In this document: positions 2,433-52,708 of the stretch, piece after piece
Numbering within the stretch: the stretch's first letter is position 1
Layout: every line of letters starts with the position of its first letter
Sequence record: NZ_CP015284.1
Reading direction: 5' to 3' (one strand)
Source of the DNA: a plasmid
DNA: 64,000 nt
Program-made: the position numbers and the translations under genes
Notes under the pieces: model-generated
The model's database searches: none
What the model was told of the DNA's origin: nothing
The model's input: only the letters and a program-made list of their open reading frames with translations

Positions 2433-3416
2433 TCAATCAATAAATCTTATAAGGTGATTCTTATCTAAACTATATCCTTGTATTTCAGCAACTTTCTTAA
2501 TATCACCTGTCTCTTTATAAACAATAGAGGCGTGGCTGTCTTTTAAAATGCTAGGAGTTATTACCTTACCATAAGCATGTCCAATGTTCTTTGCCAAATG
2601 ACCTATTGTATTTCTCCCCATAGGCTTTTTCAACATGGTTAAAAATAATGACGGTATAGAAGGGTCTAAGTCCCAGCGTCCACGTCGTTCCTTAACAAAT
2701 GGAGCTATGTAAGGAATTGTGAAAGGAAGAAAACGGATAAATTGTTTCTCATTGTTCCTAACAACCCAAATTCCTTTTTTACGCATATCAATATCCCTAA
2801 CTGTCAAGTTAACAACTTCTTGTGTACTTGCTCCAGTACCAATTATGATTGCAAATATAGCAATATTTCGCTCTTTCTCGTTTTCCCAATTATCAGCCTT
2901 TTTCTGAGTTGGTAGAGTTGTAACATAACTGTTTGCCATGAAATCAAGTAGACCTTCTAGCTCTTGCTGCGTATACAAAATAGTATTCTTCTTTGATTCC
3001 GAATATATAATGTTATGGTAACTCTCTTTATAAACAATCTTCCATTCATCAAAAACGTTACGATAAAATAAAGGCATACCTCTCTCAACTGTAAAAGAGG
3101 TATTCGTAAGGAAACTCCAAAAAGCTGCTAAAGTATAGAGTATGAATCTTTTCCCTACTGGTTTCAGACGTAAATTTGCCAAATAATTTTGAACAAATTC
3201 TCGTGGTAATTTTTCTAAGTCTGTCAATGATAGGGAGGCACCCTCTTTATCAATCGTAATTGCATAGCTATTTAAAAATTTCTGGATCACTGACAAACGT
3301 TCAACCATTTTGGGAGAAGGCTCTTCGACATCTACTTGAAGGTAAGATATATACTCATCTATAATATCTGGTAATTGCCTTCTGAGTGCTAGATATTTAT
3401 CTTTCTGTTTTGACAT
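2433..3416 (-). CDS. XerS-like tyrosine-recombinase-fold protein, apparently catalytically degenerate
   Basis: By-eye alignment with the XerS at 52709..53782: FYRNV, NEKERNIAIFAIIIGTGASTQEVVNL vs NKERDLAVIALLLSTGVRLSELVNL, and PYI motifs. Arg I replaced (GTGAS vs STGVR). Box II reads SILKDSHAS instead of HKLRHTLAT. No C-terminal catalytic Tyr (ends ...NHLIRFID vs ...VEVYAHV). Confidence 0.6.
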   Translation of the reverse strand: MSKQKDKYLALRRQLPDIIDEYISYLQVDVEEPSPKMVERLSVIQKFLNSYAITIDKEGASLSLTDLEKLPREFVQNYLANLRLKPVGKRFILYTLAAFWSFLTNTSFTVERGMPLFYRNVFDEWKIVYKESYHNIIYSESKKNTILYTQQELEGLLDFMANSYVTTLPTQKKADNWENEKERNIAIFAIIIGTGASTQEVVNLTVRDIDMRKKGIWVVRNNEKQFIRFLPFTIPYIAPFVKERRGRWDLDPSIPSLFLTMLKKPMGRNTIGHLAKNIGHAYGKVITPSILKDSHASIVYKETGDIKKVAEIQGYSLDKNHLIRFID

Positions 3417-3552
3417 AATTCTCCTCCTCTCAATAATGATAGCAATTAACTACAGGTTTACCACTACTTATTTTTAAACCTATTATATCATACAAGATTG
3501 CATGTTGATTTTAGATTTAACTAGTATAAAAAATCTCTAAAACAAAATAGCG

Positions 3553-3580
3553 ATACATCGTGTATCGCTATTATATATAT
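3553..3580. promoter_or_regulatory. near-perfect palindrome atagcgataca-n5-tgtatcgctat (dif-like two-arm site candidate)
   Basis: 11-bp inverted arms between rep and the XerS-like gene. Core CGATACA/TGTATCG recurs in the 7.1-8.0 kb repeat field and at 10090-10100. Confidence 0.45.
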
Positions 3581-3607: not shown

Positions 3608-5071
3608 TTATACTTTAAAATAATCAAGTATCTCAGTCAAGAGTTGTTCTCTTGTCTCTTCAAAGTGGCTATCAGACAGTGACTCTAAACCTTTATCTTT
3701 AAGTTCCCACAGCTTCTCTTGCAACAGTTTCTCTGCTAAATGTTTAATATCCGCCTTGTTATCTTCGTCAGGCGTCTTTGAGAGTTCTATTTTAATTGCT
3801 GATTTAACTGCTACTACTACTAGTCCTAAACGGTCTTTTTCATCCGTTCCATTTTCATAGTTTGGCTCAGACCAGTCTGGAACATTTGAAGGACGATTAT
3901 CCTTATTAGTTGGATGACTATCTCTCAAATCTGAAAGTTTTGTGTACCCTGCTACTTCCCATTTATTGAGCAACGTTCTTGTCCAACCGAAAGTACGGTT
4001 TGCATCACTTCCTGTTCTTTCCAACGCCTCAATAACTAGTTCATGGTCCATTGTTTCAAGCCAACGTTTGAGTTGATTTTTATTATTGTAGTTGTCAGCC
4101 TTGCTCCCTTTAGGAAAAACAGTGTAGAATTTCTCCATCACGATAGCCATCTTACGTTTGAAGTCTAACTCCTTCTTCTTCTCAAAGGTAATGACTTTAT
4201 CGTTTGTTGCAACAATACGTCTCAAATCGTCATCGAACGGTTTAAACCTAAATATATAGTGGGTAATTGATTTTCCTTTTTTGATTCGCTCTACTGTCAA
4301 ATCTTGTATTACAGGAAGGCCATGCTCATCAACTAATAGCGTATTGATTTCATCCATTGCTTGCTGCAGCTTAGTACCTTTCGAACGAAGTAAACTTGGA
4401 CTATCCAAGATCAAAACTTCTTGCTCTAGTTCTTCAGCTGTATCTTTTACAAAACCTGTTTTACGCCAGTCTGCTAGATGTCTAAATAATCGTTTAGAAT
4501 ACTTACTCTTCAATAGGTTATGGTAGTCACGTCCATACTGAATGTACTTAGCTTTTTTACCCCACTCTGGGTTGTTAAAAAGGTCTTTAACTGTACGCCT
4601 GACCGCTACTTTTACTTTTGTTCCATCTTCTGTAGTTACTTCATCATATTCAGTATATTCCGCATCAGACAGGTGGATTTTAATGAGTTTGTTTTCGTGG
4701 TCTACTCTAAAGGTCTTGAACAGTGGGATGGAGGTGTAAGAGACAACCTTACCATCGACAACCTTTTCGGGATGTCGATATACAATTTTAGTCATTCTTT
4801 CCTCTAGTTCCTCAACTGTAGTTTCAAATCGCTTACCAGTCCTAGGAACAATTTTTTGTTCCCTAGAACTGTAAAATGTATTTCCTGCTAGCATTGCCAG
4901 ACTCGAATAAGAAAATATTGCTGCTTCGTTTTCATCATAAACATCTCGCAACTCACCAAATATAGAGTAAATCATATTTTCTTGAAGAGGAGAAAGGTCG
5001 CCAAGTTGGAACATTTGGGTAAACTTATTATCATATTTGATGATTTCTCTGAACTCTCTATTCTCTACCAA
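3608..5071 (-). CDS. theta-type replication initiator (Rep_3-like N-terminal region fused to DnaD-like C-terminal domain)
   Basis: 487 aa. C-terminal NKNQLKRWLETMDHELVIEALERTGSDANRTFGWTRTLLNKWEVAGY resembles DnaD/replisome-organiser domains. Iteron array lies immediately upstream. Confidence 0.55.
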   Translation of the reverse strand: MVENREFREIIKYDNKFTQMFQLGDLSPLQENMIYSIFGELRDVYDENEAAIFSYSSLAMLAGNTFYSSREQKIVPRTGKRFETTVEELEERMTKIVYRHPEKVVDGKVVSYTSIPLFKTFRVDHENKLIKIHLSDAEYTEYDEVTTEDGTKVKVAVRRTVKDLFNNPEWGKKAKYIQYGRDYHNLLKSKYSKRLFRHLADWRKTGFVKDTAEELEQEVLILDSPSLLRSKGTKLQQAMDEINTLLVDEHGLPVIQDLTVERIKKGKSITHYIFRFKPFDDDLRRIVATNDKVITFEKKKELDFKRKMAIVMEKFYTVFPKGSKADNYNNKNQLKRWLETMDHELVIEALERTGSDANRTFGWTRTLLNKWEVAGYTKLSDLRDSHPTNKDNRPSNVPDWSEPNYENGTDEKDRLGLVVVAVKSAIKIELSKTPDEDNKADIKHLAEKLLQEKLWELKDKGLESLSDSHFEETREQLLTEILDYFKV

Positions 5072-5184
5072 ACGCTTCTACCTCTCTTAGTTCATTCATC
5101 ATACATTTTGGTTGTATTTTAAATAAAAGTAATTATTTTACTACAAGCTAATTACTTACTGCAATATGTGACAGGGTATAAAAA

Positions 5185-5495
5185 TATTAATTTACAACCC
5201 TTTTGTATGATATTATATCATTAATATTCTGATTTTCATAGTATTTTTTAAAATTTACAACCATTTTGTAGGATATACCTGCAATTTTATATGACACACA
5301 TGCATTTTTGTAGACTTAACATACAACTTTATAGGATATACATACCGTTTTGTAGGATACGCCTACAATTTTATATGACATACATACATTTTTGTAGACT
5401 TAACATACAACTTTGTGTGACTTTCATGCAAAGTTATATGATATACCTACCAATTTGTAGGATATACATACAATTTTATATGATAAAGGTAGGCT
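5185..5495. repeat. iteron array / putative replication origin (about ten tandem 21-22 bp units TTTTRTAGGATAYAC...)
   Basis: Visible tandem units ttttgtaggatatacctgcaa / ttttatatgacacacatgcat / ttttgtagacttaacatacaac repeated, with an AT-rich tract 5170-5260. A further single copy lies at about 5700-5730. Track ORF 5291..5506 is an artefact of this array. Confidence 0.6.
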
Positions 5496-5733
5496 TAGCT
5501 CAGTAATAGCAAGGGGTTCAGGAGTTCTACTACTTAAACTATAATTAACTACTTAGTTACTATTATTAACCACTTAATACTACTTAATACTATTTAAACT
5601 ATTATTACTAAATGTTCTTAATCATAATTGAAACCATAAAATAAAAAAAATTCTTTAAAAAAGATACAACTCATATAAAGAATAAAAAGTGTAGAAATAC
5701 CTACACTTTTGTATGATATAACATAAAGTTTTC

Positions 5734-6258
5734 CTACTTAAAGCTCATCTCAGTTTCTACTAATGTGTTAAACAACTCCTTTTGTTCTGGATCTAGAAGT
5801 TGGTACACATGGTCTAACATTTCAGTGAATAGCTTATCAGAACCACCGCGTTTAGGATAATTGCCATTTTCTCCTTTAAGGTCTTTTTTGTTTAAAACAG
5901 CTCTTAATGCAGAAAAACGTGACATTGATAATTGTGTCATATTGAGATTTGCACGTGATTTTTCTTCCACTGTTTTAGCTGGTTCCAGTTTTGTAGGAAG
6001 TTTATTTTTTTCTTTTTTCTGAGTGACATCGTTTACTTTTTTAGGGGCAACAGCAGCTTTTTTTGGTTCTACACTTTCTTCAGTTAGATAAGCAATATCA
6101 TGCTTTTCCTTAAGTTTATCAATTACTACTTCTTCAATTTCTTTCCCTTTAAAAAAGCGTTCAAATAATTCTTTAGCTGCTGTTCGGTCATTTGATTCAA
6201 CAGCCGTTAAAAGGTTATTAAAATTTCTTTGTTGGATTGTATTAAGCTTTTTCGCCAT
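5734..6258 (-). CDS. partition protein, putative centromere-binding partner of ParA
   Basis: Overlaps the parA stop by 17 nt. GGAG RBS 7 nt before ATG at 6258 (MAKKLNT...). Lys/Glu-rich, 174 aa. Function inferred from position only. Confidence 0.4.
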   Translation of the reverse strand: MAKKLNTIQQRNFNNLLTAVESNDRTAAKELFERFFKGKEIEEVVIDKLKEKHDIAYLTEESVEPKKAAVAPKKVNDVTQKKEKNKLPTKLEPAKTVEEKSRANLNMTQLSMSRFSALRAVLNKKDLKGENGNYPKRGGSDKLFTEMLDHVYQLLDPEQKELFNTLVETEMSFK

Positions 6259-7072
6259 TGTGTTCTCCAATCGTCTTAATTAGTTCTTTCATAACATTTG
6301 TGATTTGTTTTTTAGGGATGCTATAGCCACTATTTCTGAAAACATTTGCTTGATTAGCAATCATATCTTTGTATTGTTTATTATTAAACAAGTATTGGTC
6401 AAAAACCTTGGTATTATGCTCTTCAGCAATTTCTTCAAGAGTTGCTACTGCTTCTCTTGCTTTGATTTGTTTAATTGATTTTTTACCAAAGCCTGGCCCT
6501 TTATCAACCTGAGTTATAACGATTCCAGCTATAACAATATCAATTCCAAAGAAAGAGAACCCTTCTTGAACAGCTTCAATATCTTCGATTGTATCTTTTA
6601 CACCTTCAATACCAAACTTATCAGGTGTTGTAGGAATAAGAACGAAAACTTTCGAATTTGTAAAAAGAGAACTTGTTGTAGAAACACCAAAAAAAGGAGG
6701 TGTATCAAAAAGTACAAAATCGTAATAGTCATTGATATCTTGTACAACATTTCTTAAACGAAAATCTCTATCTTTTAGTCCTGATGCTTCACTCTCCCAG
6801 TTTTTCATAAGCTTACTTCCAGGAAGCAAATCATAACCGTCAACTGGCACAATGGCATCAGCTACTTCTACTTCTTTTTTTAGTACATCATAAATTCCTT
6901 TATGTTCTTCTTCGTTTACTCCTGCCGCTGTAGTAAGATTGCATTGACCATCAAGATCTCCTGCACAAGTTTTATAGCCAGCGTCTCCTAGAGCTTGAGC
7001 CAGTAATACAGTTAAAGTTGTTTTTGAGGCTCCTCCTTTCTCGTCCATCATTATGACTGTATTTGCAACCAT
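6242..7072 (-). CDS. parA: ParA/Soj-family partition ATPase
   Basis: Deviant Walker A MMDEKGGASKTT. GGAG RBS before ATG at 7072 (MVANT...). Track ORF begins 15 nt further upstream. Confidence 0.85.
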   Translation of the reverse strand: MVANTVIMMDEKGGASKTTLTVLLAQALGDAGYKTCAGDLDGQCNLTTAAGVNEEEHKGIYDVLKKEVEVADAIVPVDGYDLLPGSKLMKNWESEASGLKDRDFRLRNVVQDINDYYDFVLFDTPPFFGVSTTSSLFTNSKVFVLIPTTPDKFGIEGVKDTIEDIEAVQEGFSFFGIDIVIAGIVITQVDKGPGFGKKSIKQIKAREAVATLEEIAEEHNTKVFDQYLFNNKQYKDMIANQANVFRNSGYSIPKKQITNVMKELIKTIGEHNGEKA

Positions 7073-7089
7073 AGAAACTCCTTTCAATC

Positions 7090-8230
7090 CATTATGTACG
7101 ATACACTATGTATAACAAAACGATACATATTATTAACTATTTAAAGTATACCATATAGAAATCTAATAGCAAGTATTATGTAAGATATATCGTAAATAAT
7201 ACAATATACACTATGTATAGCTTATAATGGATTATTGATAATAAGCGTGTTACGCATTAGCTAATACATAGTGTATCGTTTACAATATACTATTTAAAAA
7301 GAAAGCATATGACATATCAAAACTAGACAAGAATAAAACACGATACATTATATAAAATAAACGATGTATCTTATAGATATATAAGATACATATGGTAATG
7401 ATAGATAGGATATATTACTATATTCAAGTTTCCTTCAAGCATTACACATTACACTATACATAACATCACTATATATAGTGTAGTGTAAAAAAGAAATTGC
7501 ACTTTTTTAGTGTACTATAGACGATGTAATATATATCGTTAAATGATATATTGCTAAGTATTATATAGTATACCTTTCATACACTCCTTTATTATAATAA
7601 AGGAGAATATTTTTATTACAACACGATACATAATACATTATGTAGTGTGAATAATATATAGCTTTTGTATTTATCGTATATAGTAGGTAATATACGATAC
7701 ATTATTATAGTGTACTATAGACGATGTAAGATATATTGTTAAATAATGTATTGCTAGGTATTATATCGTATATCTTTCATCCATTCCCTTAATATACTAA
7801 ATAAGAATAGTTGTATTATAATACGTTACACGATACATTATGTAATGTGAATATTGTATAGTACTATCTGTTATCGTATATAATAGATAATATAAGATAT
7901 ATATTGTACGATACATTAAAGAACTATATATGATTATGTTCTTATTGGGTTATAAGTTATATTTAAAATTAGTATAAATGTTGTTCTATGTTGTTTACGA
8001 TACAAGATACATAGTTTAACAATGTATCTTGTATTCCTTTATGATGTTTGACACTTCGCTTATTACGATTGGCGAACTATACATAATGTGTTGTAAACAT
8101 ATAGATTATGTATAGTATATAATGTAATGAAAAATAGTATATATAGTTATAATTTCGAATAACGATAAACTTGTAATGTTAGTAGCTCTTTGCTATACTA
8201 AAGTCATAAATAATTATATTTATATTTTCA
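7090..8230. repeat. AT-rich centromere/promoter-like repeat field with recurring CGATACA/TGTATCG motifs and two about 155-bp direct repeats (7508-7662, 7709-7866)
   Basis: Direct repeat units beginning tagtgtactatagacgatgtaa..., about 80 percent identical. More than 10 copies of acgatacat or its reverse complement. Upstream of the parAB operon. Confidence 0.5.
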
Positions 8231-8239
8231 CCACCTCAA

Positions 8240-8725
8240 ATGGTGAACCTTTGGTCACGTGACTAAAGAAAAGAGAAGCATGGAGGAGGATATGTCATTA
8301 CTGGTTCTGTCCCAGCAATAGGCATACCATGTTTTATAATGGGTTAAAAGGGAGCGTACTCGCTTTTAGCTATCAGTTAAGTCATCAGACAGAAGAAGAG
8401 GCTTAACGCTTATAACAGGTACGAGAAATTGCTTTTCTGACTTTGAAAGGCTACAACAAACGTTATTAGCAACTAAGCATAACGAGAAGTTTATCCTATG
8501 GTTTGCCATAGGCACGCGCAACCTTGTTTTTTGAGACAAGGCTTGCCGGCTTCTTTGTTATGCTTTTTTTGTTTTGAGTTTGGGTAGACAGACAAAAAAG
8601 GGAGGCGACATCTCGATGATTAGAGGTGAGGAACAGGTGTTCCCAACTCTAACTTGTCGGCATACGGAGGAAGGGCTACGAATCAGTATTCGAGGCTTTC
8701 CAAGGTCACTTTACAACAACAATTT
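8240..8725. other. GC-richer structured non-coding segment (candidate oriT/sso or ncRNA)
   Basis: No ORF over 60 aa. Multiple stem-loops (e.g. ccttgttttttgagacaagg, tggtttgccataggc). Distinctly higher GC than flanks. Sits between the partition locus and the primase operon. Confidence 0.3.
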
Positions 8726-8739
8726 TTAAGGAGAAAAAA

Positions 8740-10065
8740 ATGACAAAATTAATCACTATTGGAAATCAAGAGTTAATTCGTGTTGGGCGAGATTACCCTT
8801 GTCCTATTTGTGGGAAACCAGATTGGTGTTTGTTGTTCGCAGATCAATCTAAAGCAGTTTGTGCAAGAAAAATTGACCCAGACAAACCACAATTTGGTAG
8901 TGCTGGGACAATTTATGAATTGGACCCTAAAAAAGCGAAAGAGGTGACTTTTGAACCAAGTTGGAAAAGTCAGCCTTTGGCAAGTATCTCAACACTTCAC
9001 AAGGTAAATTCTCTTGTGATTGATGTGTTAGGATTGACTAAGGAACATGTCGAGCACTTAACAAGTGCGGAACGAGGTCTTTCTGTTGAGACCATTGCAC
9101 TGCGTGGTTACGCTTCATCAACAAAGCAAACACGTCAGAAGCAGGTTGATACAACAGTATCTCATCCAGCAACTATTTGGGAAAAGCTCTTTGTTGCTAA
9201 TGGGCTTCCTAAAGATGCATGGCGTGGAGTGCCTGGCTTCTACTGGAATGAAAACGCAAAATGTCCTATTTTTGAATCAAAAGATGGAATTCTAATTCCA
9301 TGTCGCAATTCTTGGGGACAAATTGTAGGTTTTCAAGTACGTCTTGATAACGTTAGTTATCAAGCCAAAGTAAACGAAGCCTTTCAAGAGGGACGAAATG
9401 CACGTACTGCTAAGGTCTTCCAAAATGACGACGGAAGTTTCGATTGGTATGTGTTTGCTAAAGGTTCATCACACGAACTAGCAAGTGGGACAACTAAGGA
9501 AACTAGTGTTAAACTTCGTTCTGGACTTGAGTTGACATTTAAAAAAGGGCAAAAATATGTCTTTGTTTCGTCAGCATATAAACCAGAAGGAACGAGTGCT
9601 AAGTCCTTTCCCCATTTTGCTTATTCTGATGAAGTCTTAGAACAAGCACGCTTTTCTGAAGAAGGTAAGGCAAAAGTCAATCTTATGAGTAAGGTTGATA
9701 ACCTTCTAGTTACTGAAGGTCTGCTTAAAGGAGATATCACCGCGTCAGTTGCGAAAAACACTCGTCTTTCTCAATTGGGGAATATCTGTGTTATCTCTAT
9801 GGCAGGAGTAGCAGCATGGCGTCCTATCTCGGACTTTATCGGAAAGACTGAACTCAAAAAGGTTAAACCAATTTATCTTGCATTTGACCAAGACTTTGAG
9901 GATAATGACTCGGTATTTGAACGCATGTATGACATGGTTCAAGATCTAGTTACTAAGCAGTCTTGTACGGTTCGTGCTCTAATCTGGCCTCGCGAAAAGG
10001 GAATTGATGATTTCCTTTTGAAAGCATCCCCAGAAGAAAAGATTAAGTTTAAAACTTATCAATGA
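8740..10065 (+). CDS. plasmid/ICE-type DNA primase-like protein (N-terminal zinc ribbon + C-terminal TOPRIM/DUF3854-like domain)
   Basis: CPICGKPDWC zinc-binding motif. TOPRIM signature LLVTEG...IYLAFDQDFEDND (Glu + DxD). Confidence 0.55.
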   Translation: MTKLITIGNQELIRVGRDYPCPICGKPDWCLLFADQSKAVCARKIDPDKPQFGSAGTIYELDPKKAKEVTFEPSWKSQPLASISTLHKVNSLVIDVLGLTKEHVEHLTSAERGLSVETIALRGYASSTKQTRQKQVDTTVSHPATIWEKLFVANGLPKDAWRGVPGFYWNENAKCPIFESKDGILIPCRNSWGQIVGFQVRLDNVSYQAKVNEAFQEGRNARTAKVFQNDDGSFDWYVFAKGSSHELASGTTKETSVKLRSGLELTFKKGQKYVFVSSAYKPEGTSAKSFPHFAYSDEVLEQARFSEEGKAKVNLMSKVDNLLVTEGLLKGDITASVAKNTRLSQLGNICVISMAGVAAWRPISDFIGKTELKKVKPIYLAFDQDFEDNDSVFERMYDMVQDLVTKQSCTVRALIWPREKGIDDFLLKASPEEKIKFKTYQ

Positions 10066-10118
10066 TATAACGCAATATATAGTATGATATACATCGTATA
10101 TCGTACATATAAGAGAAA

Positions 10119-10158
10119 GAGGAAGGTAGTAACCCTAGGCTACACCTTCCTCTTTTTC
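10119..10158 (+). terminator. rho-independent terminator
   Basis: gaggaaggtagt...ctacaccttcctc hairpin followed by TTTTT. Confidence 0.6.
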
Positions 10159-10175
10159 TATGGAGGAGAAAAACA

Positions 10176-11639
10176 ATGACAAATTTACTAACAGCAGCAC
10201 AAAAAACTGCTAAAAAAGTCACTTTTCCCAAGATAAAAGAGACTGATAAAGCTGCAGATATCGTGAGAAAGTTTTGTACTTACTATGCGAATATTCGTAG
10301 ATATCAATGTCAGGAACTTTTATCTCAAGAAGTCGGAGCACTAGCAGTAGAGGTATTTGGACAGGATAATGTTTACACAGCCTATAAAGTCAAAGACATC
10401 ATGGCTGATATCGAAACCATTGGCTATGATCAAGCTCATTTTTCGAATCAACTAAAAAGACTGTTCGAGGGCTTGAGCTTGAGGGATGAAGAAAATCAAG
10501 AACACCTTTTCGGTGAACAGATTCTTCTCACATTAGATGGAAGTAGATTACCTGCTACTAAAACTGCAGAAGACACCAAACGCACTTTGTATCTTCTCAT
10601 TGTCGACGATTCAAAGGTTAGAGTACCTTTGAAGAAAAACCTAAGTTTTTGGAGAGAGAGAAATTCACAAACAAGGTATGGACTAGTATCTTTTAGCTTT
10701 CTTGAATTGATGTCTATCCATAGTGAAGGTATCTACAAGGAATGTAGTTATTATGGAAATATCCAAAAGATAGCTAACGTTCTAAAAAGAGAGTATGAAG
10801 ATGCTCTTGCAGCTAACCTAAATGCACAATATGTTAATCAGTCAACTAAGACGATAGCCAGTGTGCGTGAGGATAAAATCTTTCAAGATCATGAAATGAA
10901 CAGTAATACGTCATTTCTTGATTTAGGGTTTTCGAAAGTTGAAGTGGATACCGAGCGTTATCGAGGTAGTGATTTTGACAAGGAGAAATTCAAGGTTCTA
11001 GAGAACGAATGGGAGAAGTTGTGTAATCACTTACCTCATTCTACTGTAGAACCCGAACTCAAATTCCGGAAGCTAGGAAAACATAAAGCAAGCGGACTTT
11101 ATGTGCCAGGGTTAAATATCATGGCAGTTGATGTAAGAGATTCCTCATCCTTCATCCATGAGTATGGTCATTATTTAGACTATACGTATGATAAAGCTGG
11201 AATCATTAGTTCTACGTCTCATAGCTTTAAAGATATTCGTTATATCTACAAGGCTAGCTTGCTGAAACTTATTCAAATAGCTGAGGAAAGCAGAACGGAC
11301 TTAGCTCAAGCTGTTCATATTAAGAAGAAGTTGGATTATTATTTGACACCGACTGAAGTGTTTGCACGTGGCTTTGAATGGTGGGTTTTTGAAACTTATA
11401 CCAAAGATTCAGAACTGCTATCTGATGAAGCTACTTACTATACTCGATTAGAGTATAGGGCTTTGAGGCAATGTCGACACCTTTTGTTTGCATTTTTTGA
11501 CACGTTCTTTGAGAACTATCGTGCAATGCAACCTATTTATAAGGTTGAGAAGGAGCCAAAAACACTAGTAGCTTGTCGAAAGCCACTTGAAGATAAACCA
11601 ACAACTGAAGGAGAACAGTTAAGCTTGTTTGAGTTCTGA
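10176..11639 (+). CDS. HExxH zinc-metallopeptidase-motif protein, possibly ArdC-like antirestriction/establishment protein
   Basis: HEYGH motif followed by acidic residues. 487 aa. Conserved RBS ggaggagaaaaacaATG. Confidence 0.3.
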   Translation: MTNLLTAAQKTAKKVTFPKIKETDKAADIVRKFCTYYANIRRYQCQELLSQEVGALAVEVFGQDNVYTAYKVKDIMADIETIGYDQAHFSNQLKRLFEGLSLRDEENQEHLFGEQILLTLDGSRLPATKTAEDTKRTLYLLIVDDSKVRVPLKKNLSFWRERNSQTRYGLVSFSFLELMSIHSEGIYKECSYYGNIQKIANVLKREYEDALAANLNAQYVNQSTKTIASVREDKIFQDHEMNSNTSFLDLGFSKVEVDTERYRGSDFDKEKFKVLENEWEKLCNHLPHSTVEPELKFRKLGKHKASGLYVPGLNIMAVDVRDSSSFIHEYGHYLDYTYDKAGIISSTSHSFKDIRYIYKASLLKLIQIAEESRTDLAQAVHIKKKLDYYLTPTEVFARGFEWWVFETYTKDSELLSDEATYYTRLEYRALRQCRHLLFAFFDTFFENYRAMQPIYKVEKEPKTLVACRKPLEDKPTTEGEQLSLFEF

Positions 11640-11652
11640 GAGGAGAAAAACA

Positions 11653-12033
11653 ATGACTGAAATGACGGTCAAAAAGTATTTGGAACCTTATTACACTTTA
11701 GATAGAGTGGCATTAGGTTCAATACTAGAAACAGCTAGGAAAGAATTAGATAGACCTCTATCTCTTCAAGATGTTGCAAATAGAATTGGGGTTTTTAAAG
11801 GAACTGTCAATAATTATGAAAAAGGACGGTCTATTCCTAAAGAACCACAATTTTCGATGCTTTGTAAACTGTATAAAATTGATAAGGTTGACCTTATCAA
11901 TAAAACTACAATTCTTGATAGAGATAAGGTTCTTTCCAAACGTTACGAATTGTTGAGTACGATTCGTGAATTGCAGAAAGAAGCTGCAGAGTTAAAGCTG
12001 TTACTAGAAACTGAAAAAGGAGAAAAACAATGA
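11653..12033 (+). CDS. XRE-family helix-turn-helix transcriptional regulator
   Basis: LQDVANRIGVFKGTVNNYEKGRSIP HTH. Start chosen at ATG after the conserved gaggagaaaaacaATG motif; the track ORF starts 24 nt upstream. Confidence 0.65.
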   Translation: MTEMTVKKYLEPYYTLDRVALGSILETARKELDRPLSLQDVANRIGVFKGTVNNYEKGRSIPKEPQFSMLCKLYKIDKVDLINKTTILDRDKVLSKRYELLSTIRELQKEAAELKLLLETEKGEKQ

Positions 12034-12812
12034 TTGTAAACAATATTTTAAAAGAAGCTATCGATAATAATATCCAAGATATTACCTTCTTCCCACATGG
12101 TGAAGATTACGAGGTAGCATTTAGAACTGCTGATGTTAAACAGGTCCATGACTTCATTTCATCAGAAGATGCGGATGCTCTATTTGGTCATATTAAATTT
12201 ATAGCTGAAATGGACTTAACAGAAAAACGTTGTAGTCAGGTAAGAACTTGTGACTATGAGTTGGACGATGGTAGAGTTATTACCATTAGGATATCGACGA
12301 TAGTTAATTTTCAAGGACTAGAAACGATGTCTATCCGACTTATTCATGTGAATGAACGACGAATTTCTTTGAGTGAGTTTGATAGTAGTTGTATGGAAGA
12401 AGTGCTTAAACAAGTACGCATTCCAGGCTTACATGTCATTACTGGTCCTGTAGGTGTCGGCAAAACGACTTTAGCTTACTCGTTACTTGCTGAAGCTTTT
12501 AAAGAAGGTAAAGTAATGACAATTGAAAGACATGTCGAGATAAAAGATGTATCTTTTTGCCAGCTACAAGTCAATAAGGCTAACGGTATGGAACTGGAAA
12601 AGCTCGTGACTTTTGTATTACGCTTCAACCCTGACGTCTTGTTCATTGGTGAAGCTAATACACAAGAAGAAGTAGAAGCAGTACTTAAGGCTGTTTCTGC
12701 AGGATTAAGTGTCGTTACAACAGTTCATAAAGATGGCTTTTCAATCCCACATGATGTTTTAGAAATGAAACAAGGAAAAGATGGGAAACGAAATGTAGCT
12801 TTGATTAAATAG
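12030..12812 (+). CDS. compact PulE/GspE/ComGA-like secretion ATPase
   Basis: Walker A GPVGVGKTT, Walker B-like DVLFIGE, His-box-like SVVTTVH. N-terminal TFFPHGEDYEVAFRT resembles the ComGA/PilB N-domain. Only 260 aa. Confidence 0.5.
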   Translation: MIVNNILKEAIDNNIQDITFFPHGEDYEVAFRTADVKQVHDFISSEDADALFGHIKFIAEMDLTEKRCSQVRTCDYELDDGRVITIRISTIVNFQGLETMSIRLIHVNERRISLSEFDSSCMEEVLKQVRIPGLHVITGPVGVGKTTLAYSLLAEAFKEGKVMTIERHVEIKDVSFCQLQVNKANGMELEKLVTFVLRFNPDVLFIGEANTQEEVEAVLKAVSAGLSVVTTVHKDGFSIPHDVLEMKQGKDGKRNVALIK

Positions 12813-12824
12813 AGGAGAAAAACA

Positions 12825-13286
12825 ATGACGATGGAAATTAATGATTTTGACCGCTTCATGGCAGTAAGCCATTTTGATGATGAAATGGCGGAAGCTCACA
12901 CACCGACTGAGGATGCTATTCATAATTGGGTAGTTGATAATCAAGAGGATGATGAGCTGATTGCTGGGATTCTCAAACATCTTGATCGTACGATTAAGGA
13001 TGCTATGGCTTACTGCATCAGAAAAGCCAGTAAATCTGACTATAGAGAGGGTCAGGGTGCTATGGTTGATGATGCCACAGTCTTTTCTTGGGTTAAAGAG
13101 TATTTTACCGCTGAAAAGGTTGAGACTAAACCAGTTGTAGGTAAAATGACTACTGGTAGTAAGAAATCAACCAAGCAACCAACGAAGAAGCCAAAAAAGA
13201 AAAAACCAACTAAGAAAACTCCTGAAAAGGATGAGAAACAGTTAGATCTTTTTTCGGATTTATCTATTGAAGAAGGCGAATTTTAA
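12825..13286 (+). CDS. hypothetical protein, acidic N-terminus and Lys/Pro-rich tail
   Basis: ORF with conserved RBS motif. KKPKKKKPTKK tail. Confidence 0.45.
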   Translation: MTMEINDFDRFMAVSHFDDEMAEAHTPTEDAIHNWVVDNQEDDELIAGILKHLDRTIKDAMAYCIRKASKSDYREGQGAMVDDATVFSWVKEYFTAEKVETKPVVGKMTTGSKKSTKQPTKKPKKKKPTKKTPEKDEKQLDLFSDLSIEEGEF

Positions 13287-13299
13287 CAACAATAAATAG

Positions 13300-13327
13300 A
13301 AAAATGGTCCTAGGGCCATTTTTTATT
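13300..13327 (+). terminator. rho-independent terminator
   Basis: aaatggtcctagggccatttttt. Confidence 0.55.
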
Positions 13328-13345
13328 AATTAAGGAGAAAAAACA

Positions 13346-14893
13346 ATGACAAAAGCAGAGAATATTCAAGAAATCGTAGATAATCGTTTAAAAGTTCCTA
13401 ACGGATTTTTCAAATGGGCGAAGAATGATTTTCCTATCTATGAATGGTCAAATAAGTCTAAGACAATTATCTCTTCCGACCGAAAAAAATTCTCGGAAAA
13501 GGTTACAAAACGTTTATCACTTAACAGCCGTTTAACCTTTGTAGGTGATACTTTTTACTATGTCTGGATGGGAGTCACAAAGAAACGTATTGAAATGCAG
13601 ATGTATTCTGTGACTCAATCCTTCGAAAAAGGAAAAGAAAAGTTCAAAGTCAGACTTTACAACTTTTATCAGCTTGCCAACAATAAGATTGTTAAAGCAC
13701 ACCGGGATCCATTTCTTTCAGCCCAAAAAGGTAAAGATATCTATAGAAGTGGATTCCAAAATCAGAGGAATGCTCTCTTTTTTGGTTCTGGTGCATTTAG
13801 TGTCTATACGCTTTATGGGGATATGGAAAGTCTTATTCAGAAATTACAAACAAAGTCTGAGTTGAGATATTTAGATTTTGGACAAGTGATTAAAGATAAT
13901 TTTGAGATAAGCTTAGTACTACCTCATCTCTATAAATATAGAGAACGCATTGAATTCGCTCAAAAAATCAAGGCGCGTGGAATCGTCAAAGACTTGGTGG
14001 GGTCTACTTTTTATAGGTCTTATTACTCATCTAGTCTAGGACATGGTCATGCAAATATGGGTAAGGTTACCATGAACTTTCTTAAAAGGAATAAACCGTT
14101 TCTAAAAAATACGGATATGAATGTTGAAAAGGCATTTTTTGAGGAAGATTTGCGTAAACGATATGGTCGAACTTTCAAGGGGTTATACGAGTTGCTTCCA
14201 AACGCTATGATTTCTGACAAGAAGCCACTAATTAAGCGTTTGGAAAGTATCTTACCATCCACTGTGAAACCAATTCGTTTTATTAACTGGATGATGAAAA
14301 ACAATATCTCCCTTCGTGATTATGAGGACTATCAAGAAATGGTAGAAGCTCTGGGAATTCCATTTGATGGAGATTATGTAGTTATCCCAAAAAATTGGGA
14401 AAACAAACATACAGAGATCGTAGAAAATTATTCAACTTTTCTCGAGAATCAACAAGCACGTGGTACATATTTACGTGTAACTAATGCTGTCAGAGATTTG
14501 AGAGCAGAGAAACAACGCCTTGAGGACGAAAAGAAAGAGGCGAAGTTGAGGGTTGAAACAGCTAAACGTTTGACAAACATGATGAAGGCTCAGACCGCAT
14601 TTGACAAGTATGCTTTTATCTTTCCTAAAGACGAAAGTGAAATTGTCAAAGAAGGCAAAACCCTACATCATTGTGTTGGAAGTTATGCAAAAAAACACTT
14701 TGTATACGGAACTTCTATTATTGTCTTTGTTCGTGATAAAGAACACAGAGAAACCCCTCTCTATACTCTTGAATTGAAGAACAATAGGATTATTCAACTG
14801 AAAGGAGAAAGGAACAAATCCGCAGATGAAGAGGCAAAGAAAGAAGCAGAACTATTTTTAGCCCATTGTGGAAAGCTTAACATTCAGTTTTAG
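13346..14893 (+). CDS. conjugative-plasmid-associated protein of unknown function (possibly PcfJ-like)
   Basis: 515 aa. C-terminal HHCVGSY...GERNKS region. Family assignment from memory only. Confidence 0.3.
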   Translation: MTKAENIQEIVDNRLKVPNGFFKWAKNDFPIYEWSNKSKTIISSDRKKFSEKVTKRLSLNSRLTFVGDTFYYVWMGVTKKRIEMQMYSVTQSFEKGKEKFKVRLYNFYQLANNKIVKAHRDPFLSAQKGKDIYRSGFQNQRNALFFGSGAFSVYTLYGDMESLIQKLQTKSELRYLDFGQVIKDNFEISLVLPHLYKYRERIEFAQKIKARGIVKDLVGSTFYRSYYSSSLGHGHANMGKVTMNFLKRNKPFLKNTDMNVEKAFFEEDLRKRYGRTFKGLYELLPNAMISDKKPLIKRLESILPSTVKPIRFINWMMKNNISLRDYEDYQEMVEALGIPFDGDYVVIPKNWENKHTEIVENYSTFLENQQARGTYLRVTNAVRDLRAEKQRLEDEKKEAKLRVETAKRLTNMMKAQTAFDKYAFIFPKDESEIVKEGKTLHHCVGSYAKKHFVYGTSIIVFVRDKEHRETPLYTLELKNNRIIQLKGERNKSADEEAKKEAELFLAHCGKLNIQF

Positions 14894-15009
14894 ATAAGAG
14901 GAGAAAAATAGAATCGTCAATAGGTTATTAGTCAATCTCGAATTTTCTGTGCTATACTAAAGAAAACATTAGATGTATTCTCTAGTAAAATGCTGGGAGG
15001 ACAATAGTT

Positions 15010-15357
15010 ATGAAATTGACTATTATTATATATAACAACAAAAGGATGGTTGGGAAATACCTAGTTGATACGGTTAGTGAGACTATAGAAACGTTTGTAA
15101 GAAAAGATGATTATCTGTTAAATACAGAATTCACTTATGAACGGATGGTAGACTTTCTAAAAGGGCGTCAAATTGATTTTGGTCGAAAAAATCGAAAAGA
15201 GCTTTTAGGCTATACTTATAAAGCTCCAGATGTCTGGCATGAAATTGCCATGACACACGGTTTTGATACCGATGATTTTTATTGGGTATCAATACCAGAA
15301 CTCAACGATGAACCGTTTGTTTTAGAAGACCATCATCCTAACTTAGGAAGACGATAA
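15010..15357 (+). CDS. hypothetical protein
   Basis: 115-aa ORF followed by a terminator. Confidence 0.4.
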   Translation: MKLTIIIYNNKRMVGKYLVDTVSETIETFVRKDDYLLNTEFTYERMVDFLKGRQIDFGRKNRKELLGYTYKAPDVWHEIAMTHGFDTDDFYWVSIPELNDEPFVLEDHHPNLGRR

Positions 15358-15378
15358 ACAATTATTTTAACGAAAAAG

Positions 15379-15411
15379 AAAGACTTGGTATTGTACCAGG
15401 TCTTTTTTTGT
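15379..15411 (+). terminator. rho-independent terminator
   Basis: agacttggtattgtaccaggtct + TTTTTTT. Confidence 0.6.
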
Positions 15412-15431
15412 TTTAAGGAGAAAGAACAACA

Positions 15432-18400
15432 ATGGAAGAACAAAAAAATAATACTAAAACAATGACTAAAGCAGAAAAGGTTCAAGCTAACCTTTCTGCT
15501 ATTAAACTTGTGAAAGCACTCGAAGCAGATAACCGTCTAGCTGATAGTGCCGAACAAGAAATTCTCTCTAACTATGTTGGTTGGGGAGGACTTGCTAACG
15601 ATTTCTTTGATAGTAAGATTAATCGTTTTGCAAAAGAACGTGATGAGCTAAAAAGTCTTGTCACTAAAGAAGAATATCGTGCGATGGAAATGAGCTCCTT
15701 GACGGCTTACTACACAAGTCCAGAGATTGCTACTGCAATGTGGGATAAGATTGTAGAAAGTGGTTTTAAAGGAGGTAATATTCTTGATCCATCAATGGGT
15801 ACTGGTATCTTCTTTGAAACAATGCCAGAGGACATCAAGAAGAATTCTACACTTTATGGAATTGAACTTGATACCATTACTGGTGCTATTGCTAAACACC
15901 TTCATCAAGATGCTACTGTTTTAGTCCAAGGATTTGAAACAGTAAACTTTGAAGGGACCCCATTTGACTTGGTCATTACGAATGTTCCATTTGCGGATGT
16001 TCGCATTGTCGATAAGGCTTATGATAATAAACCTTATCGTATTCATGATTACTTCTTTAAGAAAGCTATCGATTTGGTACCCTATCATGGGATGGTTGCT
16101 GCTATCACTTCAACTGGTACTGCAGATAAGAGTGCTGGTTCAATTCTGCCAGAACTCCGTCGTAGCGGAACTCAGTTTTTAGGTGGTGTCCGCTTACCAA
16201 ATACTGCTTTTAAAGATGCTGGAACACGAGTGGTAACAGATATCCTATTTTTCCAAAAAGGAGCTTTTATCCCTGTTCCCGATAATAATATCGACTTTTG
16301 GTCTTCAGATAGAAATAAACTCCCCTTTGATAAACGTGTCTCACTCAATCCCTATTTCTTCCAGGATGCTATTTGTAAAAATCCTTGTGTCCTAGGTGAT
16401 TATCAGGTACGTAATTTCAATGGTGGAACACTGGATCTTGTGGTAGATAGCTCTTTTGACTTAGCTTCAGAGCTTCAAGAAGCACTATCAAAAGTAACAG
16501 TGCCTTTCGAAGTAGAGAGACTAGAACCTCGTGATATTATCCTTAAAGAAGAAGTGAATCATCTTGACCAAGGCTTACTTACTTCACTTGATATTCGATT
16601 GAATGAGTATGCTTGTGATAAAAATGGGCGTGTCTATTATCGTGATAACACGTCTATCCGTCCTAGCTCACGCGCAGCTGAAATGATTTTTTATCAAGAC
16701 GAACAAGGACAGTTCGTAAAATACGATGATAAATACAAAGAAGAAGCCATTTTAGACTTTGAAGCAGCAGTAGAAGCAGACCCTAATATTGTTACAAATA
16801 CATGGGTAAGTCAAACACCTTCTAAAGCAGCTAAAAGTAAAGGGCTTTACAAAGGTATTTATTTCTATGAAACACCCCTTACGGATACAGAAAACAAGCG
16901 TATCCGTGGCATGGTTGCTATCAAAAATGCTTATCAAGCCATTATTGATATTCAAATGACGACAGACTATGATGAAGGGAAATTCAAACAACTGCTTGCA
17001 ACACTTAATCAAGCCTACGATACTTTCAAGAAGAAGTATGGTTATATCAATCAAGCGGTGAATGCTCGCCTCTTTGACCGAGATGACCGTTATCCTCTTA
17101 TCGCTAGTCTTGAATTAGAGGAGTTGGACGAGAATGACAGCTCAAAGGTAGTCTTTGTGAAGTCAGATGCTTTTAAAAAGCCAACTATTCGTCCTAAAAA
17201 ACACCTCCATCAAGTGATGTCAGCAGTAGAAGCTTTGAATGTGTCGCTTTCAGAAGGTCGTGGCGTTGATTTGAACCTCATGAGTTCTGTCTATCCAGAT
17301 GTTTCAGAAGATATGATGATTTCAGAACTAGGTGAGACAGTGATGATTGATGTGGAACGCTATATTGATGATAAGACTGTACACTATGTTACTAAGGATA
17401 AATTCCTTTCCGGTGATGTTCTTGCTAAACGTGATTGCATTAACTCTCTCATTGAAGACGGAGATACACAAGCGGATTGGGAACGATATTTGGAATTGAT
17501 TTTATCTGTTGTACCAGAACCAGTTGTCTTATCTGATATTGATTTCAGCATTGGTTCTAGCTGGATTCCTAGTAACGTCGTTTCTCAATGGGTGTTTAGT
17601 GAATTGTTGGATGAAAAGGTTGGTCTCCATTCTGAAGAAGCTAAATCACTATTAGTGACATCCAGAATCGGACGAGGTTTCAACGAACGCTTGTTAAACT
17701 GCTATATGAGTCGTCAATCTAACCTTCGTTTAGGTCTACGTGATGAGTACAATAAAAGCTACTCACACGCAACAGATATTGTGGCTCACTTGCTTACAAG
17801 TAATCAACCAACAATCATGCGTAACTTTGGTACGACTGAAAATCCTGTACGTAAGGTTGATGAAGTGGCAACAGCAAACCTACGTGAGTGTGAGCGTGTT
17901 CTACAAGAAAGCTTTAAGAACTTTATTCATGAAAACCCAACAGTTCAAGAAGTGATTGAGGATACCTACAATGAAGTCTTTAATCGCTATGTGACACGTC
18001 AATATGATGGAAGTCTCTTGGAATTTGATGGGTTGGCTAAAGGAGTAGAGCTTCGCCCTCACCAAAAAAATGCGGTACAACGTATTCTTGAAGAGAGACG
18101 TGCACTACTTGCTCACGAAGTGGGTACTGGTAAGACACTAACCATGATTTCTGCAGCTTTCAAGATGAAAGAACTAGGGCTTATTCATAAACCATTGTTT
18201 GTGGTTCCATCTAGTCTAACAGCACAATTTGGTCAAGAAATTATGCGTTTCTACCCTACCAAGAAAGTGTTTGTTACGACTGAGCAGGACTTTGAAAAGT
18301 CACGTCGTCGCTTGTTCGTTTCTCGTATTCTAACGAGCGACTATGATGGTATTGTGATTGGGCATTCTCAATTTGAGAAAGTTCGTGTCTCACAAGAACG

Positions 18401-20948
18401 TGAACAAGCCTTTATTTCGGAAAAGATTGATGAGCTTGATGAGATCATTAGTTACGCAAAAGCTAATGATGACAAAATCACTTTTAAGCAAGCACAATCT
18501 ATGCGTAGAAGTCTTGAGGCAAGCTTAGAAACGTTGCTTGAAAACAAGACTGGTATTGATGAGTTTATCAACTTTGAAAGCCTTGGTATTGATATGCTCT
18601 TTGTTGATGAAGCCCACGGGTACAAGAATGTCCGTCCTATGACACGTTTGGGGAACGTTGCTGGTATTACCAACCGTACCTCAAAAAAGAATATGGATAT
18701 GGAAATGAAGGTGCGCGTGCTTCAAGAAGAGCATGATACACGTCACGTTGTCTTTGCGACTGGAACACCAGTTTCCAACTCTATTAGCGAAATGTATACG
18801 ATGATGAATTATCTTCAACCAGATGTCATGGAACATTTTGGTGTCAGTTTCTTTGATGCTTGGGTTGGTGCGTTTGGGATTGTTGAGAATAGTCTTGAGC
18901 TTAACCCTACTGGAGACAAGTATATTTCACGTAAACGCTTTGCTAAATTTATGAATCTCCCTGAGCTGATGGCGATTTACCGTCAGACTGCAGATATCCA
19001 AATGACTGAAGACCTTAATCTTCCAGTTCCTATGGTAGAAAAGGTAGCGGTTGAAAGTCAGTTGACGGATAACCAAAAAGTTTATTTGGATGAGCTTGTA
19101 GAACGCTCAGACCGAGTTAAAAATGGGAGTGTAGATCCTAGTGAAGATAACATGCTTAAAATCACTAGTGAAGCCAGAAAGTTGGCTTTAGATATGCGTT
19201 TGCTTGATGCAGAGCTCTATGTAAGAGCTGATGCAGACAAACTTATGCAAGTGGTTGAGCGAGTGGATAAGATTTATCACATGGAAGCTAAGCATAAAGG
19301 GACACAGATGATTTTCTCTGACCTTGGAACTCCTAATGGCAAAGGTTTCTCTGTTTATCAAGAGTTGAAAGATTTGCTTGTTGAACGTGGGATTCCAGAA
19401 GAAGAGATTGCTTTTATTCACGATGCTGCTAACAAAAAGGCTAAGCTCCAACTTCAACGTCAAATGAATGCTGGTGAGATTCGTATTCTCATGGCCTCAA
19501 CGGAAAAAGGGGGAACCGGTCTTAACGTACAACGTCGTATGAAAGCTGTTCATCACCTCGATGTGCCTTGGAAACCGTCTGATATTATCCAACGTAATGG
19601 ACGTTTGGTTCGTCAAGGAAATATCTATCGTAAGGTAAATATTTTCCACTATATCACTAAAGGAAGCTTTGATAACTACCTTTGGCAGATTCAAGAAACA
19701 AAGCTTCGTTATATTACTCAAATCATGACCAGTCGTACACCGATGCGAGCTTCAGAGGATATTGACGAGCAAACACTCTCAGCCTCTGAATTTAAAGCTA
19801 TTGCGACAGGTAATCCATATCTTAAACTTAAGATGGAACTTGATAACGAATTTGAGTTGTTGTCTAATCGTCGTAAGGCTTGGAAACGTGATATTGCTTT
19901 GTCTCAAAAACGTATTAAGCAGGCCCTTAAAGATAAGGCAATTTACGAGAAGAAACTTTCTCTATTAGTCCAGGATAAAGAGCTTGCAGAAAAGACAAGA
20001 CCTTGGAAAGAAGTGGTTGAAAAAGAAGATGGTAAGAAATATGAGGTTGAGCATAACCCATTTGTTATGACATTTGAACCAGATGGATACGAAGCAACTA
20101 AGAAAGATGTTGCAGGGAATCAACTGAACTATGCTATGCAGATGAATGTTGCCGCTGATCCACTCCATATGAAAATGACAACCCTTGCTCATTATCGTGG
20201 TTTTGTCCTTCGTGCGTTGGAACAAAAATCACCTTGGCAACCAGAACGCATGCTTGACTTGCATATTATTGGTCAAAATAGCTATGCTGTTCGTCTAGAC
20301 TTTGCGAGTGGTATTGGGACTATCCAGCGTATCAACAATGTTATTGATGGTATGGATAAACAAGCCAAACTCTTACAGGAAAACATTGAACGTTGTTCAG
20401 AAACTATTAAGCGAGGAGAAGCTGCAGATGTTTTTGCAGACCAAGCTCGTCTTGACTATGTATCAGCAAAACGTGCCATTGTTAATCCTCTTATCGAAGT
20501 AGAGGACGAGTCTAAGAAGCCTACTGTAGAACAAATTGAAGAAGCAATCAATGCTTTTGACTTGCGTTATAAGGCAGACCATCCAGAAATGGATGAGGAC
20601 TCAGATGTAAAAGTTAGCTCAATCACTGAGGAATATAGTACTAGCTATGATCCTGATGAAGAAAGCGAACTTGTTGAAGCTATCGATGAGTCAGTAGATG
20701 AAGCAGAAACTGCCTTCGAGGAAGAAGAAGTAGTTGCTAAAGAAACCGTTGAAGAAACGACTCATGTTGTTGTTTCACAAGAAGTTCTTGATATGGCTGA
20801 TGACTTCCTAGAAAGTATTTCTGAACTCTTTGGAATGACTGAAGAACATAATGATAATGTTGCTACAGAAGTAGTTTCTGAAACCTCTGTTAATGAGGTA
20901 GAAAAAGTAGAAGTTTACGAAGAAATTTCACTATTTGACTTTGTTTAA
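15432..20948 (+). CDS. DarB-like antirestriction protein: N6-adenine DNA methyltransferase fused to SNF2/DEAH helicase, acidic C-terminal tail
   Basis: NVPF (motif IV-like) in the N-terminal MTase region. Helicase motifs [11 protein letters not shown] (I), VDEAHGYKN (II), [11 protein letters not shown] (VI). 1838 aa; last about 150 aa extremely acidic. Confidence 0.75.
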
Positions 20949-43745: not shown

Positions 43746-43746
43746 T

Positions 43747-52651: not shown

Positions 52652-52708
52652 ACATGTTAGCTATGATAAACTACTACTAACAAGAAAATTGTTAGATTTG
52701 AGGCTAAT

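Follow-up and report, generated by a model that had tools for sequence, protein, structure and literature searches.

Putative iteron origin and ParA partition cassette of a Streptococcus salivarius-type megaplasmid, with a candidate centromere-binding protein

Described counterparts and plasmid family

A predicted replication and partition module was analyzed at positions 3,608 to 8,230 of a 64,000-nucleotide stretch of the plasmid sequence record NZ_CP015284.1, and this whole stretch is referred to here as the window. Counterparts of its parts are known from several well-described plasmids. In mini-F (RepE/ori2), P1 (RepA with incA), and R6K (pi), tandem iterons lie beside an AT-rich stretch and an iteron-like site is present at the rep promoter, and the incA iterons of P1 are located beyond rep. 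The classical pCI305-type lactococcal replicon has 22-base-pair (bp) iterons in 3.5 copies and a RepB with a C-terminal domain of its own. In the partition systems of TP228 (ParF-ParG-parH) and pSM19035 (delta-omega), ParA is small and lacks a DNA-binding domain, its gene precedes a small partner gene, and upstream of parA there are many short sites that overlap its promoter. Repeated dimer sites directly upstream of parA form the type Ib centromere layout in TP228 parH and pSM19035, and omega acts at several promoters.

The module of the window shares features with each of these groups except the pCI305-type replicon, the organization of which does not match. Its initiator, Rep, has a predicted WH1-WH2 winged-helix fold in common with the initiators of mini-F, P1, and R6K, and its iteron layout may be likened to theirs, with additional iterons beyond rep that recall P1 incA. 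However, the sequence similarity to these plasmids is remote, Rep has a putative extra DnaD-like C-terminal domain, and the iterons of the window number 11, are 21 bp long, and form a higher-order unit of 84 bp, with no DnaA box at the origin. Rep relatives were very few. Beyond the salivarius megaplasmids, Rep was closest to the Reps of large Lactococcus plasmids (26-29% identity) and of an 86-kilobase (kb) S. equinus plasmid (33%). Two such plasmids were inspected, Lactococcus pKF147A and S. equinus p1_CNU_G6. Both encode a homologous Rep (26-33% identity) in which Rep3_N is joined to a C-terminal domain related to DnaD (Phg_2220_C or DnaB_2), and both carry approximately eight to ten iterons of 21 bp upstream of rep (approximately ten in the Lactococcus plasmids), as in the window, although the iteron sequences are unrelated. 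In p1_CNU_G6, DnaB_2 scored 41.3 bits in Rep, and AT-rich repeats were found together with eight iterons of 21 bp. The lactococcal/streptococcal theta plasmid organization proposed in the first-pass annotation thus holds for the Rep homology, which is real, and for the 21-bp iterons, but the relationship is distant.

On the partition side, the ParA of the window is likewise small and lacks a DNA-binding domain, a small partner gene comes next, and a further site elsewhere on the plasmid may be analogous to those of pSM19035 omega. In contrast to ParG and omega, the partner protein of 174 amino acids is more than twice their size and has no significant similarity to them. The site, a palindrome of 17 bp, differs from the heptads or 4-bp repeats of the TP228/pSM19035 type, and the field of sites is unusually long at 1.1 kb.

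The window is very probably part of a free Streptococcus salivarius-type lantibiotic megaplasmid, of which the stretch comprises the origin, the initiator gene, and the ParA cassette; we infer the binding events and functions from the features, statistics, homology, conservation, and skew pattern observed. The module aligned at 85-95% DNA identity to eight complete circular Streptococcus plasmids (138-237 kb), all of which are typed as rep_cluster_199 in PLSDB. The backbone at 1.3-21 kb and 47-64 kb was 92-95% identical to the same eight plasmids, in agreement with the large plasmid or megaplasmid context that had been suggested at first pass. The region at 25-45 kb is variable cargo that differs from related megaplasmids. 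Identity to any record was never complete (best 93%), with ranges of 88-95% for ParA, 88-96% for the small protein, and 91-99.8% for Rep. The relatives are as follows.

pSsal-K12 family: pSsal-NU10, pSsal-YU10, pSAL813, and pIKMIN-B501, and the unnamed plasmids of ICDC2, FDAARGOS_192, and S. equinus FDAARGOS_251

In the S. salivarius megaplasmids, the gene order, iteron layout, palindrome, and motif field are all as in the window. Their records annotate only a "replication initiation protein" and an "AAA family ATPase," and the iterons, origin, and centromere carry no annotation. The maintenance module is of an ordinary plasmid kind in an already known plasmid family, and it is the site map and the orphan ParA partner that are new. 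The S. salivarius lantibiotic megaplasmids have been described as transmissible and as carrying bacteriocin loci (PMC10086258, PMC6318363, PMC6787328). The presence of a lanthipeptide locus in the window is explained by this family, since its plasmids bear loci for salivaricin and other lantibiotics in oral probiotic strains.

Approximately 35 further loci of the window lineage were found in metagenomes, of which 30 entered the layout count, and the count covers approximately 40 related loci (41 scanned). Seven metagenomic loci represented a second, distant lineage. Within a species-representative genome collection, Rep occurred in only three contigs, all from Streptococcus and 97-99% identical. 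An apparent exchange of rep and part of the iterons in NU10, DB-B5, and S. equinus in a megablast table was dropped, because the matches had been joined differently and the Rep proteins are 99% identical in pairwise comparison. A 55%-identical "intermediate" Rep locus (L049) was rejected as an independent lineage, as it belongs to the same plasmid family in an assembly ridden with insertions and deletions. In the record NZ_CP040803.1 (pSAL813, 183.7 kb), the start of the record recurs from approximately 163,983, such that about 19.7 kb is present twice, and NZ_CP090008.1 (164,439 bp) is nearly identical to pSAL813. The 183.7-kb record may contain an untrimmed circular overlap.

Initiator, iterons, and origin region

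All genes of the module are encoded on the minus strand. Transcription runs through them from the repeat field to a recombinase gene, with the elements arranged as follows: the repeat field, parA, the 174-amino-acid gene, an iteron with a hairpin, the AT-rich stretch, a spacer, 11 iterons, a single iteron, rep, a palindrome, an inverted iteron, and the recombinase gene. The arrangement differs from an earlier description of rep as diverging, since rep, the small gene, and parA are co-directional and the iterons lie upstream of rep. The features on the replication side, with iteron scores from a position weight matrix and base composition as guanine plus cytosine (G+C), are listed below.

2433..3416, minus strand: XerS-like tyrosine recombinase, 327 amino acids, directly downstream of rep
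3485..3505, minus strand: inverted iteron, ACATGCAATCTTGTATGATAT, 22.5 bits, between the rep stop and the recombinase start
3546..3572, minus strand: rep terminator palindrome, perfect, AATAGCGATACA-tcg-TGTATCGCTATT followed by a T-run
3608..5071, minus strand: rep, 487 amino acids, predicted WH1-WH2 (Rep_3) with a putative DnaD-like C-terminal domain
5193..5213, plus strand: isolated promoter iteron, 19.8 bits, 63 bp (3 x 21) from the array
5256..5486, plus strand: iteron array, 11 contiguous 21-bp copies, consensus ACATACAATTTTGTATGATAT, with an 84-bp (four-unit) higher-order repeat
5487..5528, no strand: conserved spacer between the iterons and the AT-rich stretch, 42 bp, 48% G+C, delimited by composition and a six-plasmid alignment
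5529..5698, no strand: AT-rich stretch, 17-18% G+C, with ACTACTTAA-type short repeats, candidate DNA-unwinding element
5699..5719, plus strand: isolated iteron, 26.7 bits, the top-scoring copy, overlapping a terminator-like hairpin of the par operon (5685-5710, minus strand)
52709-53782, plus strand: true xerS, NF003462 at 438 bits, a plasmid backbone gene

The identity of Rep as a Rep_3 winged-helix initiator was supported by its sequence and its predicted fold. The Pfam family Rep3_N (PF01051/PF21205 family) scored 29.7 bits, which exceeds the cut-off of 22.4. Among seven members of the Rep family, Rep3_N was found in five, DnaB_2 in five (best expectation value, E, of 2.4e-6), and Rep3_C in three. 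The AlphaFold2 model had a predicted local distance difference test (pLDDT) score of 71, and its top Foldseek matches were RepE of plasmid F, Rep-iteron complexes, and RctB (E from 6e-5 to approximately 1e-4, probability 1.0). About 270 columns were aligned between the model and RepE, and the template modelling score (TM-score) was low at 0.36 because the domains are placed differently. A profile search of solved structures related Rep weakly to the DnaD-like structure 2zc2 (E 0.098). Of the first-pass label of a Rep_3/DnaD initiator, the Rep_3 part is borne out by Rep3_N, and DnaB_2 matches occur at the level of the family, while the DnaD-like match of the window's own protein stayed below threshold.

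The tandem nature of the iterons was evident from Tandem Repeats Finder, which reported a period of 21 with 11.0 copies at 5256-5485. The position weight matrix identified 14 copies of at least 17.9 bits, all within the module, and the best match elsewhere in the 64 kb scored 14.1 bits. Instead of the ten iterons of 21-22 bp counted previously, the set is thus composed of 11 tandem copies of exactly 21 bp and three dispersed copies. Of the latter, one lies at the rep promoter, one beyond the par operon, and one, inverted, downstream of rep. The iteron at 5193..5213, a candidate site of Rep autorepression, overlaps the promoter-like site that ranks best for rep (5239-5212 on the minus strand), which reads ATGAAA-16-TATAAT and has a TG extension. 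No DnaA box with up to one mismatch was found in the origin region, and an Rfam scan of 3.3-8.8 kb gave no match, even at E up to 1.

This layout was largely retained among the related loci. The array mostly contained 11 copies, with clean arrays ranging from nine to 15 and shorter unbroken runs in three loci. The 15 iterons of pSsal-NU10 and the S. equinus plasmid correspond to one additional 84-bp unit. The iteron at -63 was present in almost every related locus containing that region, and one or two iterons occurred beyond the AT-rich stretch, the short repeats of which differed among relatives by insertions and deletions of 21 and 10 bp. The inverted iteron after rep was at the same offset in nearly all of the loci and approximately 765 bp farther in four. 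In pSAL813 (L003, 2362-2853), an annotated IS200/IS605 transposase gene separates the rep terminator palindrome from the inverted iteron, with both kept, and the metagenomic loci L021, L023, and L038 have an offset of approximately 765 bp like that of pSAL813.

Directly downstream, the XerS-like recombinase matched Phage_integrase in Pfam (42.7 bits) and the NCBIfam XerS model NF003462 at 123.7 bits, which is under the cut-off of 267. It adjoins rep in all seven annotated relatives. The protein is a candidate multimer-resolution enzyme and a diverged paralogue of the plasmid's true xerS product.

Along the window, the cumulative guanine-cytosine (GC) skew was lowest at 7469 and highest at 55091, next to xerS, and the skew was positive throughout blocks of minus-strand genes. 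In the complete pSAL813, the global minimum was at 26,557, between parA and the DUF3854 operon, and the maximum and plateau were at 128-140 kb, next to xerS at 142.4 kb. The position of xerS at the skew maximum indicates that the plasmid has a chromosome-like layout of origin and terminus, and such a skew fits bidirectional replication from the module. Just upstream of xerS (approximately 52625-52655), a sequence that looks dif-like, TTCGGAAAAC...TTGAAT, was observed, but the streptococcal dif consensus gave no match at up to three mismatches.

ParA, its partner protein, and the repeat field

The partition side of the module consists of the following features.

5734..6258, minus strand: ParA partner gene, 174 amino acids (open reading frame 5734-6270), candidate centromere-binding protein
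6242..7072, minus strand: parA, 276 amino acids, ParA/Soj-type ATPase (mechanical open reading frame 6242-7087)
7088..8230, no strand: AT-rich repeat field, 23% G+C, upstream of parA, candidate centromere/operator

The true start codons are probably the ATG at 6258 for the 174-amino-acid protein and the ATG at 7072 for ParA, as judged from conservation and ribosome-binding sites, and ParA is annotated at 276 amino acids in relatives. ParA matched the Pfam families AAA_31 (118 bits) and CbiA (56.6 bits). It contains a deviant Walker A motif, KGGASKT, near the N-terminus and has no N-terminal DNA-binding domain, which is type Ib-like. The closest relatives among solved structures were the ParA family protein 8ray and Thermus Soj (E from 1e-17 to 1e-15).

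The partner protein has three helices in its N-terminal domain, then a linker rich in Lys and Pro, and then a C-terminal region (RANLNMTQLSMSRFSALRAVL...GNYPKRGGSDKLFTEML) that is highly conserved, more so than any other part. It had been termed ParB-like, a label that reflects its position only, as no ParB homology was found in Pfam, NCBIfam, or solved structures. Nothing in Pfam or NCBIfam exceeded a curated threshold, with only weak sub-threshold matches, and no ParB-type domain was found at E up to 10. A search among 5.8 billion proteins returned close relatives only, and an exhaustive HMMER scan of 1.84 billion representatives yielded one real diverged homologue (44% identity), so that relatives were detected in two plasmid lineages only; the weakest match of that scan, a repeat protein of 1187 amino acids, looks spurious. 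In pSsal-YU10 (L005, 5382-5907), the partner gene is frameshifted and annotated as two hypothetical proteins, as a result of either a sequencing error or a natural mutation of the partition system.

The repeat field is strongly enriched in one motif. The heptamer CGATACA occurs 11 times in the 64 kb, with nine copies at 7099-8004, in accordance with the many half-sites reported for the field at first pass, and the other two in the palindrome after rep (3551-3567). Composition-keeping simulations of the field produced 0.2 copies with a maximum of three, compared to the nine seen. When the full site CGATACA-N3-TGTATCG was allowed up to four mismatches, 18 matches were found in the field against a simulated mean of 0.94 and a maximum of five. 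The 3-nucleotide spacer was specific, since other spacer lengths gave two to five matches. In addition, ACGATACA was found nine times in the field and never in the compared remainder. Two of the sites, at 7099 and 7121, coincide in part with a promoter-like site before parA, and relatives had five to 12 CGATACA copies wherever the locus spanned the field. What had been described as two direct repeats of 155 bp is a tandem duplication of 200 bp at 7508-7899, with 82% matches and an ungapped core of 162 nucleotides. By its layout, the field may represent a type Ib-like centromere. The elements listed from the initial inspection were all recovered at the positions given and exceed chance by far, and their reading as a theta replicon with a partition system fits the results obtained.

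Weak matches to the palindrome, with three to four mismatches, were also observed in a cluster at 53803-53841, right after the xerS stop, and a further weak match was located at 10087-10103, in the gap that follows the DUF3854 gene. All of them may have arisen by chance.

The perfect palindrome after rep is of the same site type as those in the field, CGATACA-N3-TGTATCG, with the heptamer on both arms. A terminator scan at this position identified a 12-bp stem, a 3-nucleotide loop, and the tail TTGTTTTAGA. The palindrome was present in 38 of the 41 loci scanned.

The second lineage provided further insights into the relationship between the field and the palindrome. In its loci, a diverged homologue of the 174-amino-acid protein is again encoded directly after parA, followed by AT-rich repeats, approximately seven to ten differing iterons, and a Rep of 508 amino acids that belongs to the same family. 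Identity across the lineages amounts to 54% for ParA, 49% for the small protein, and 33-34% for Rep. The field motif of the second lineage differs (CCATACATCATGTA and variants), and a hairpin directly after its rep, AAAGCTATACATGATGTATGGCTTTTTT, includes that field motif in seven of eight loci. Since the field motif and the post-rep hairpin change jointly, the same protein is argued to read both places. As a tentative proposal, the 174-amino-acid protein could found a new family of centromere-binding proteins, so far in two streptococcal plasmid lineages, that reads a 17-bp palindrome both in a long centromere and in the rep terminator hairpin.

Competing explanations, neighbouring elements, and proposed mechanism

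Several results weigh against the reading of the module as an iteron origin coupled to a centromere of this new kind. For Rep, the second winged-helix family, Rep3_C, scored 16.7 bits in the window protein, under the cut-off of 21.1, and both DnaD-like models were below their cut-offs (TIGR01446 at 21.7 against 24.95, PF07261 at 14.9 against 22). The skew minimum falls within the repeat field, at a distance of some 2 kb from the iterons and at the point where transcription diverges, so an origin at the iterons and one at the field are inseparable by skew, and a bias from gene orientation remains. For the 174-amino-acid protein, a profile search of solved structures returned no ParB or other relative, and comparisons to the omega and ParG profiles were not significant (probability 0.2 or less); in the best ParG alignment, itself non-significant, RANLNMTQLSMSRF falls on the ParG strand and first helix, a part where model confidence is low. 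The AlphaFold2 monomer of this protein was weak (pLDDT 58), and Foldseek found nothing with that weak model. The grounds for its putative DNA-binding role are gene position, conservation, and the co-varying motif. The comparative support for a link between the terminator and centromere sites comes from just two independent lineages, and a literature search found no paper analyzing the origin, iterons, or centromere of these megaplasmids.

Three other explanations were considered. The palindrome after rep could be an intrinsic terminator only, with a likeness to the field motif that is coincidental or ancestral and without function. It does have the full features of a terminator, the 12-bp stem and the T-run, for which any hairpin sequence would do. 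However, CGATACA is absent from the other approximately 62 kb of the window outside the field, and the post-rep hairpin of the second lineage has that lineage's own field motif, with a 14-mer common to a field site, and this explanation appears somewhat unlikely. It is less probable that the field is not, or not solely, a centromere, and instead an operator of two divergent operons for another regulator, or a transfer origin with the leading region to its right. The location of the field between the divergent parA and DUF3854 operons would agree with this, as would the content of the right-hand operon, which is typical of the side transferred first (an AcrIIA9-family anti-CRISPR as annotated in relatives, PcfJ, and a large SNF2 protein), the reported transmissibility of the plasmids (PMC10086258), and the absence of a recognizable DNA-binding fold in the 174-amino-acid protein. 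Nevertheless, approximately ten to 18 dimer-type sites directly before a parA without a DNA-binding domain constitute the usual type Ib layout, the motif changes along with the pair of ParA and small protein in the second lineage, and no relaxase gene is adjacent.

The window shows only 64 kb, with ends beyond view, and contains a true xerS as well as several recombinases, so the module might also reside in a plasmid or conjugative element integrated in a chromosome near xerS/dif and possibly be silent as a replicon, as had been raised at first pass. This is highly improbable. At its two ends, the window is 93-95% identical to the backbone of complete circular plasmids, xerS sits in the backbone of all matched circular plasmids and is a plasmid gene rather than a chromosomal landmark, no chromosomal part was identified in the window, and its skew pattern mirrors that of the free plasmid.

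Besides the module, several neighbouring elements were observed. Between the field and the DUF3854 gene, the segment at 8225-8575 (plus strand) is non-coding and richer in G+C, with a folding energy of -112.8 kcal/mol compared to -83.2 kcal/mol for shuffled sequences (z -6.0). It ends in a hairpin and a U-run, has no Rfam match, and is conserved in 30 related loci. Its consensus fold contains 133 pairs, which are mostly invariant or show G-U-compatible changes, and three pairs have compensatory double changes. The segment is a candidate for an unclassified structured RNA or a long leader of the right-hand operon. That operon, at 8740-20948 (plus strand), diverges from parA and includes DUF3854, LPD1-domain, helix-turn-helix, and T2SSE/VirB11-like ATPase genes, and it also encodes the AcrIIA9-family anti-CRISPR annotated in relatives, PcfJ, and an SNF2-related protein of 1838 amino acids. 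It resembles the anti-defence leading regions of conjugative plasmids, although the relatives are typed as "non-mobilizable." At the Rfam gathering threshold, the Streptococcus small RNA Srn266 was found twice (37279-37388 and 52415-52524), and rli28 was found together with RatA at 43527-43866, which suggests a type I toxin-antitoxin locus.

Under the reading of the stretch as origin, initiator gene, and ParA cassette, a mechanism may be proposed. Rep monomers would load through WH1-WH2 on the 11 in-phase iterons, and because 21 bp correspond to two helical turns per iteron, all monomers would lie on one face of the DNA. Rep would then open the adjacent stretch of 17-18% G+C, and its DnaD-like C-terminal domain may recruit the helicase-loading machinery of the host. 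Replication would proceed in theta mode, with forks departing both ways and converging close to the xerS of the plasmid itself. Autorepression would be mediated by the single iteron at the rep promoter, and the outlying iterons, including the inverted copy beyond rep, are candidates for copy control by pairing, or "handcuffing." In partition, a dimer of the 174-amino-acid protein would bind the degenerate 17-bp palindromes of the 1.1-kb field, which would both form the partition complex and repress the par promoter. The same protein would stimulate the ATPase activity of ParA, which would separate plasmid copies over the nucleoid. The perfect palindrome in the rep terminator hairpin would possibly tie the partition protein to the junction of rep and the recombinase gene.

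The resulting map of the minimal replicon, the likely copy-control sites, and the candidate centromere is useful for the design of shuttle vectors, for curing or stabilizing these megaplasmids, and for judging their incompatibility. If the proposed role of the 174-amino-acid protein is true, partition would be coupled, physically or by regulation, to the expression of the initiator or to the downstream XerS-like recombinase, and this arrangement would have been kept, with a co-varied motif, across lineages in which Rep is only about 33% identical. An orphan ParA partner and a centromere-type site inside a rep terminator would then be small, testable additions to plasmid biology.

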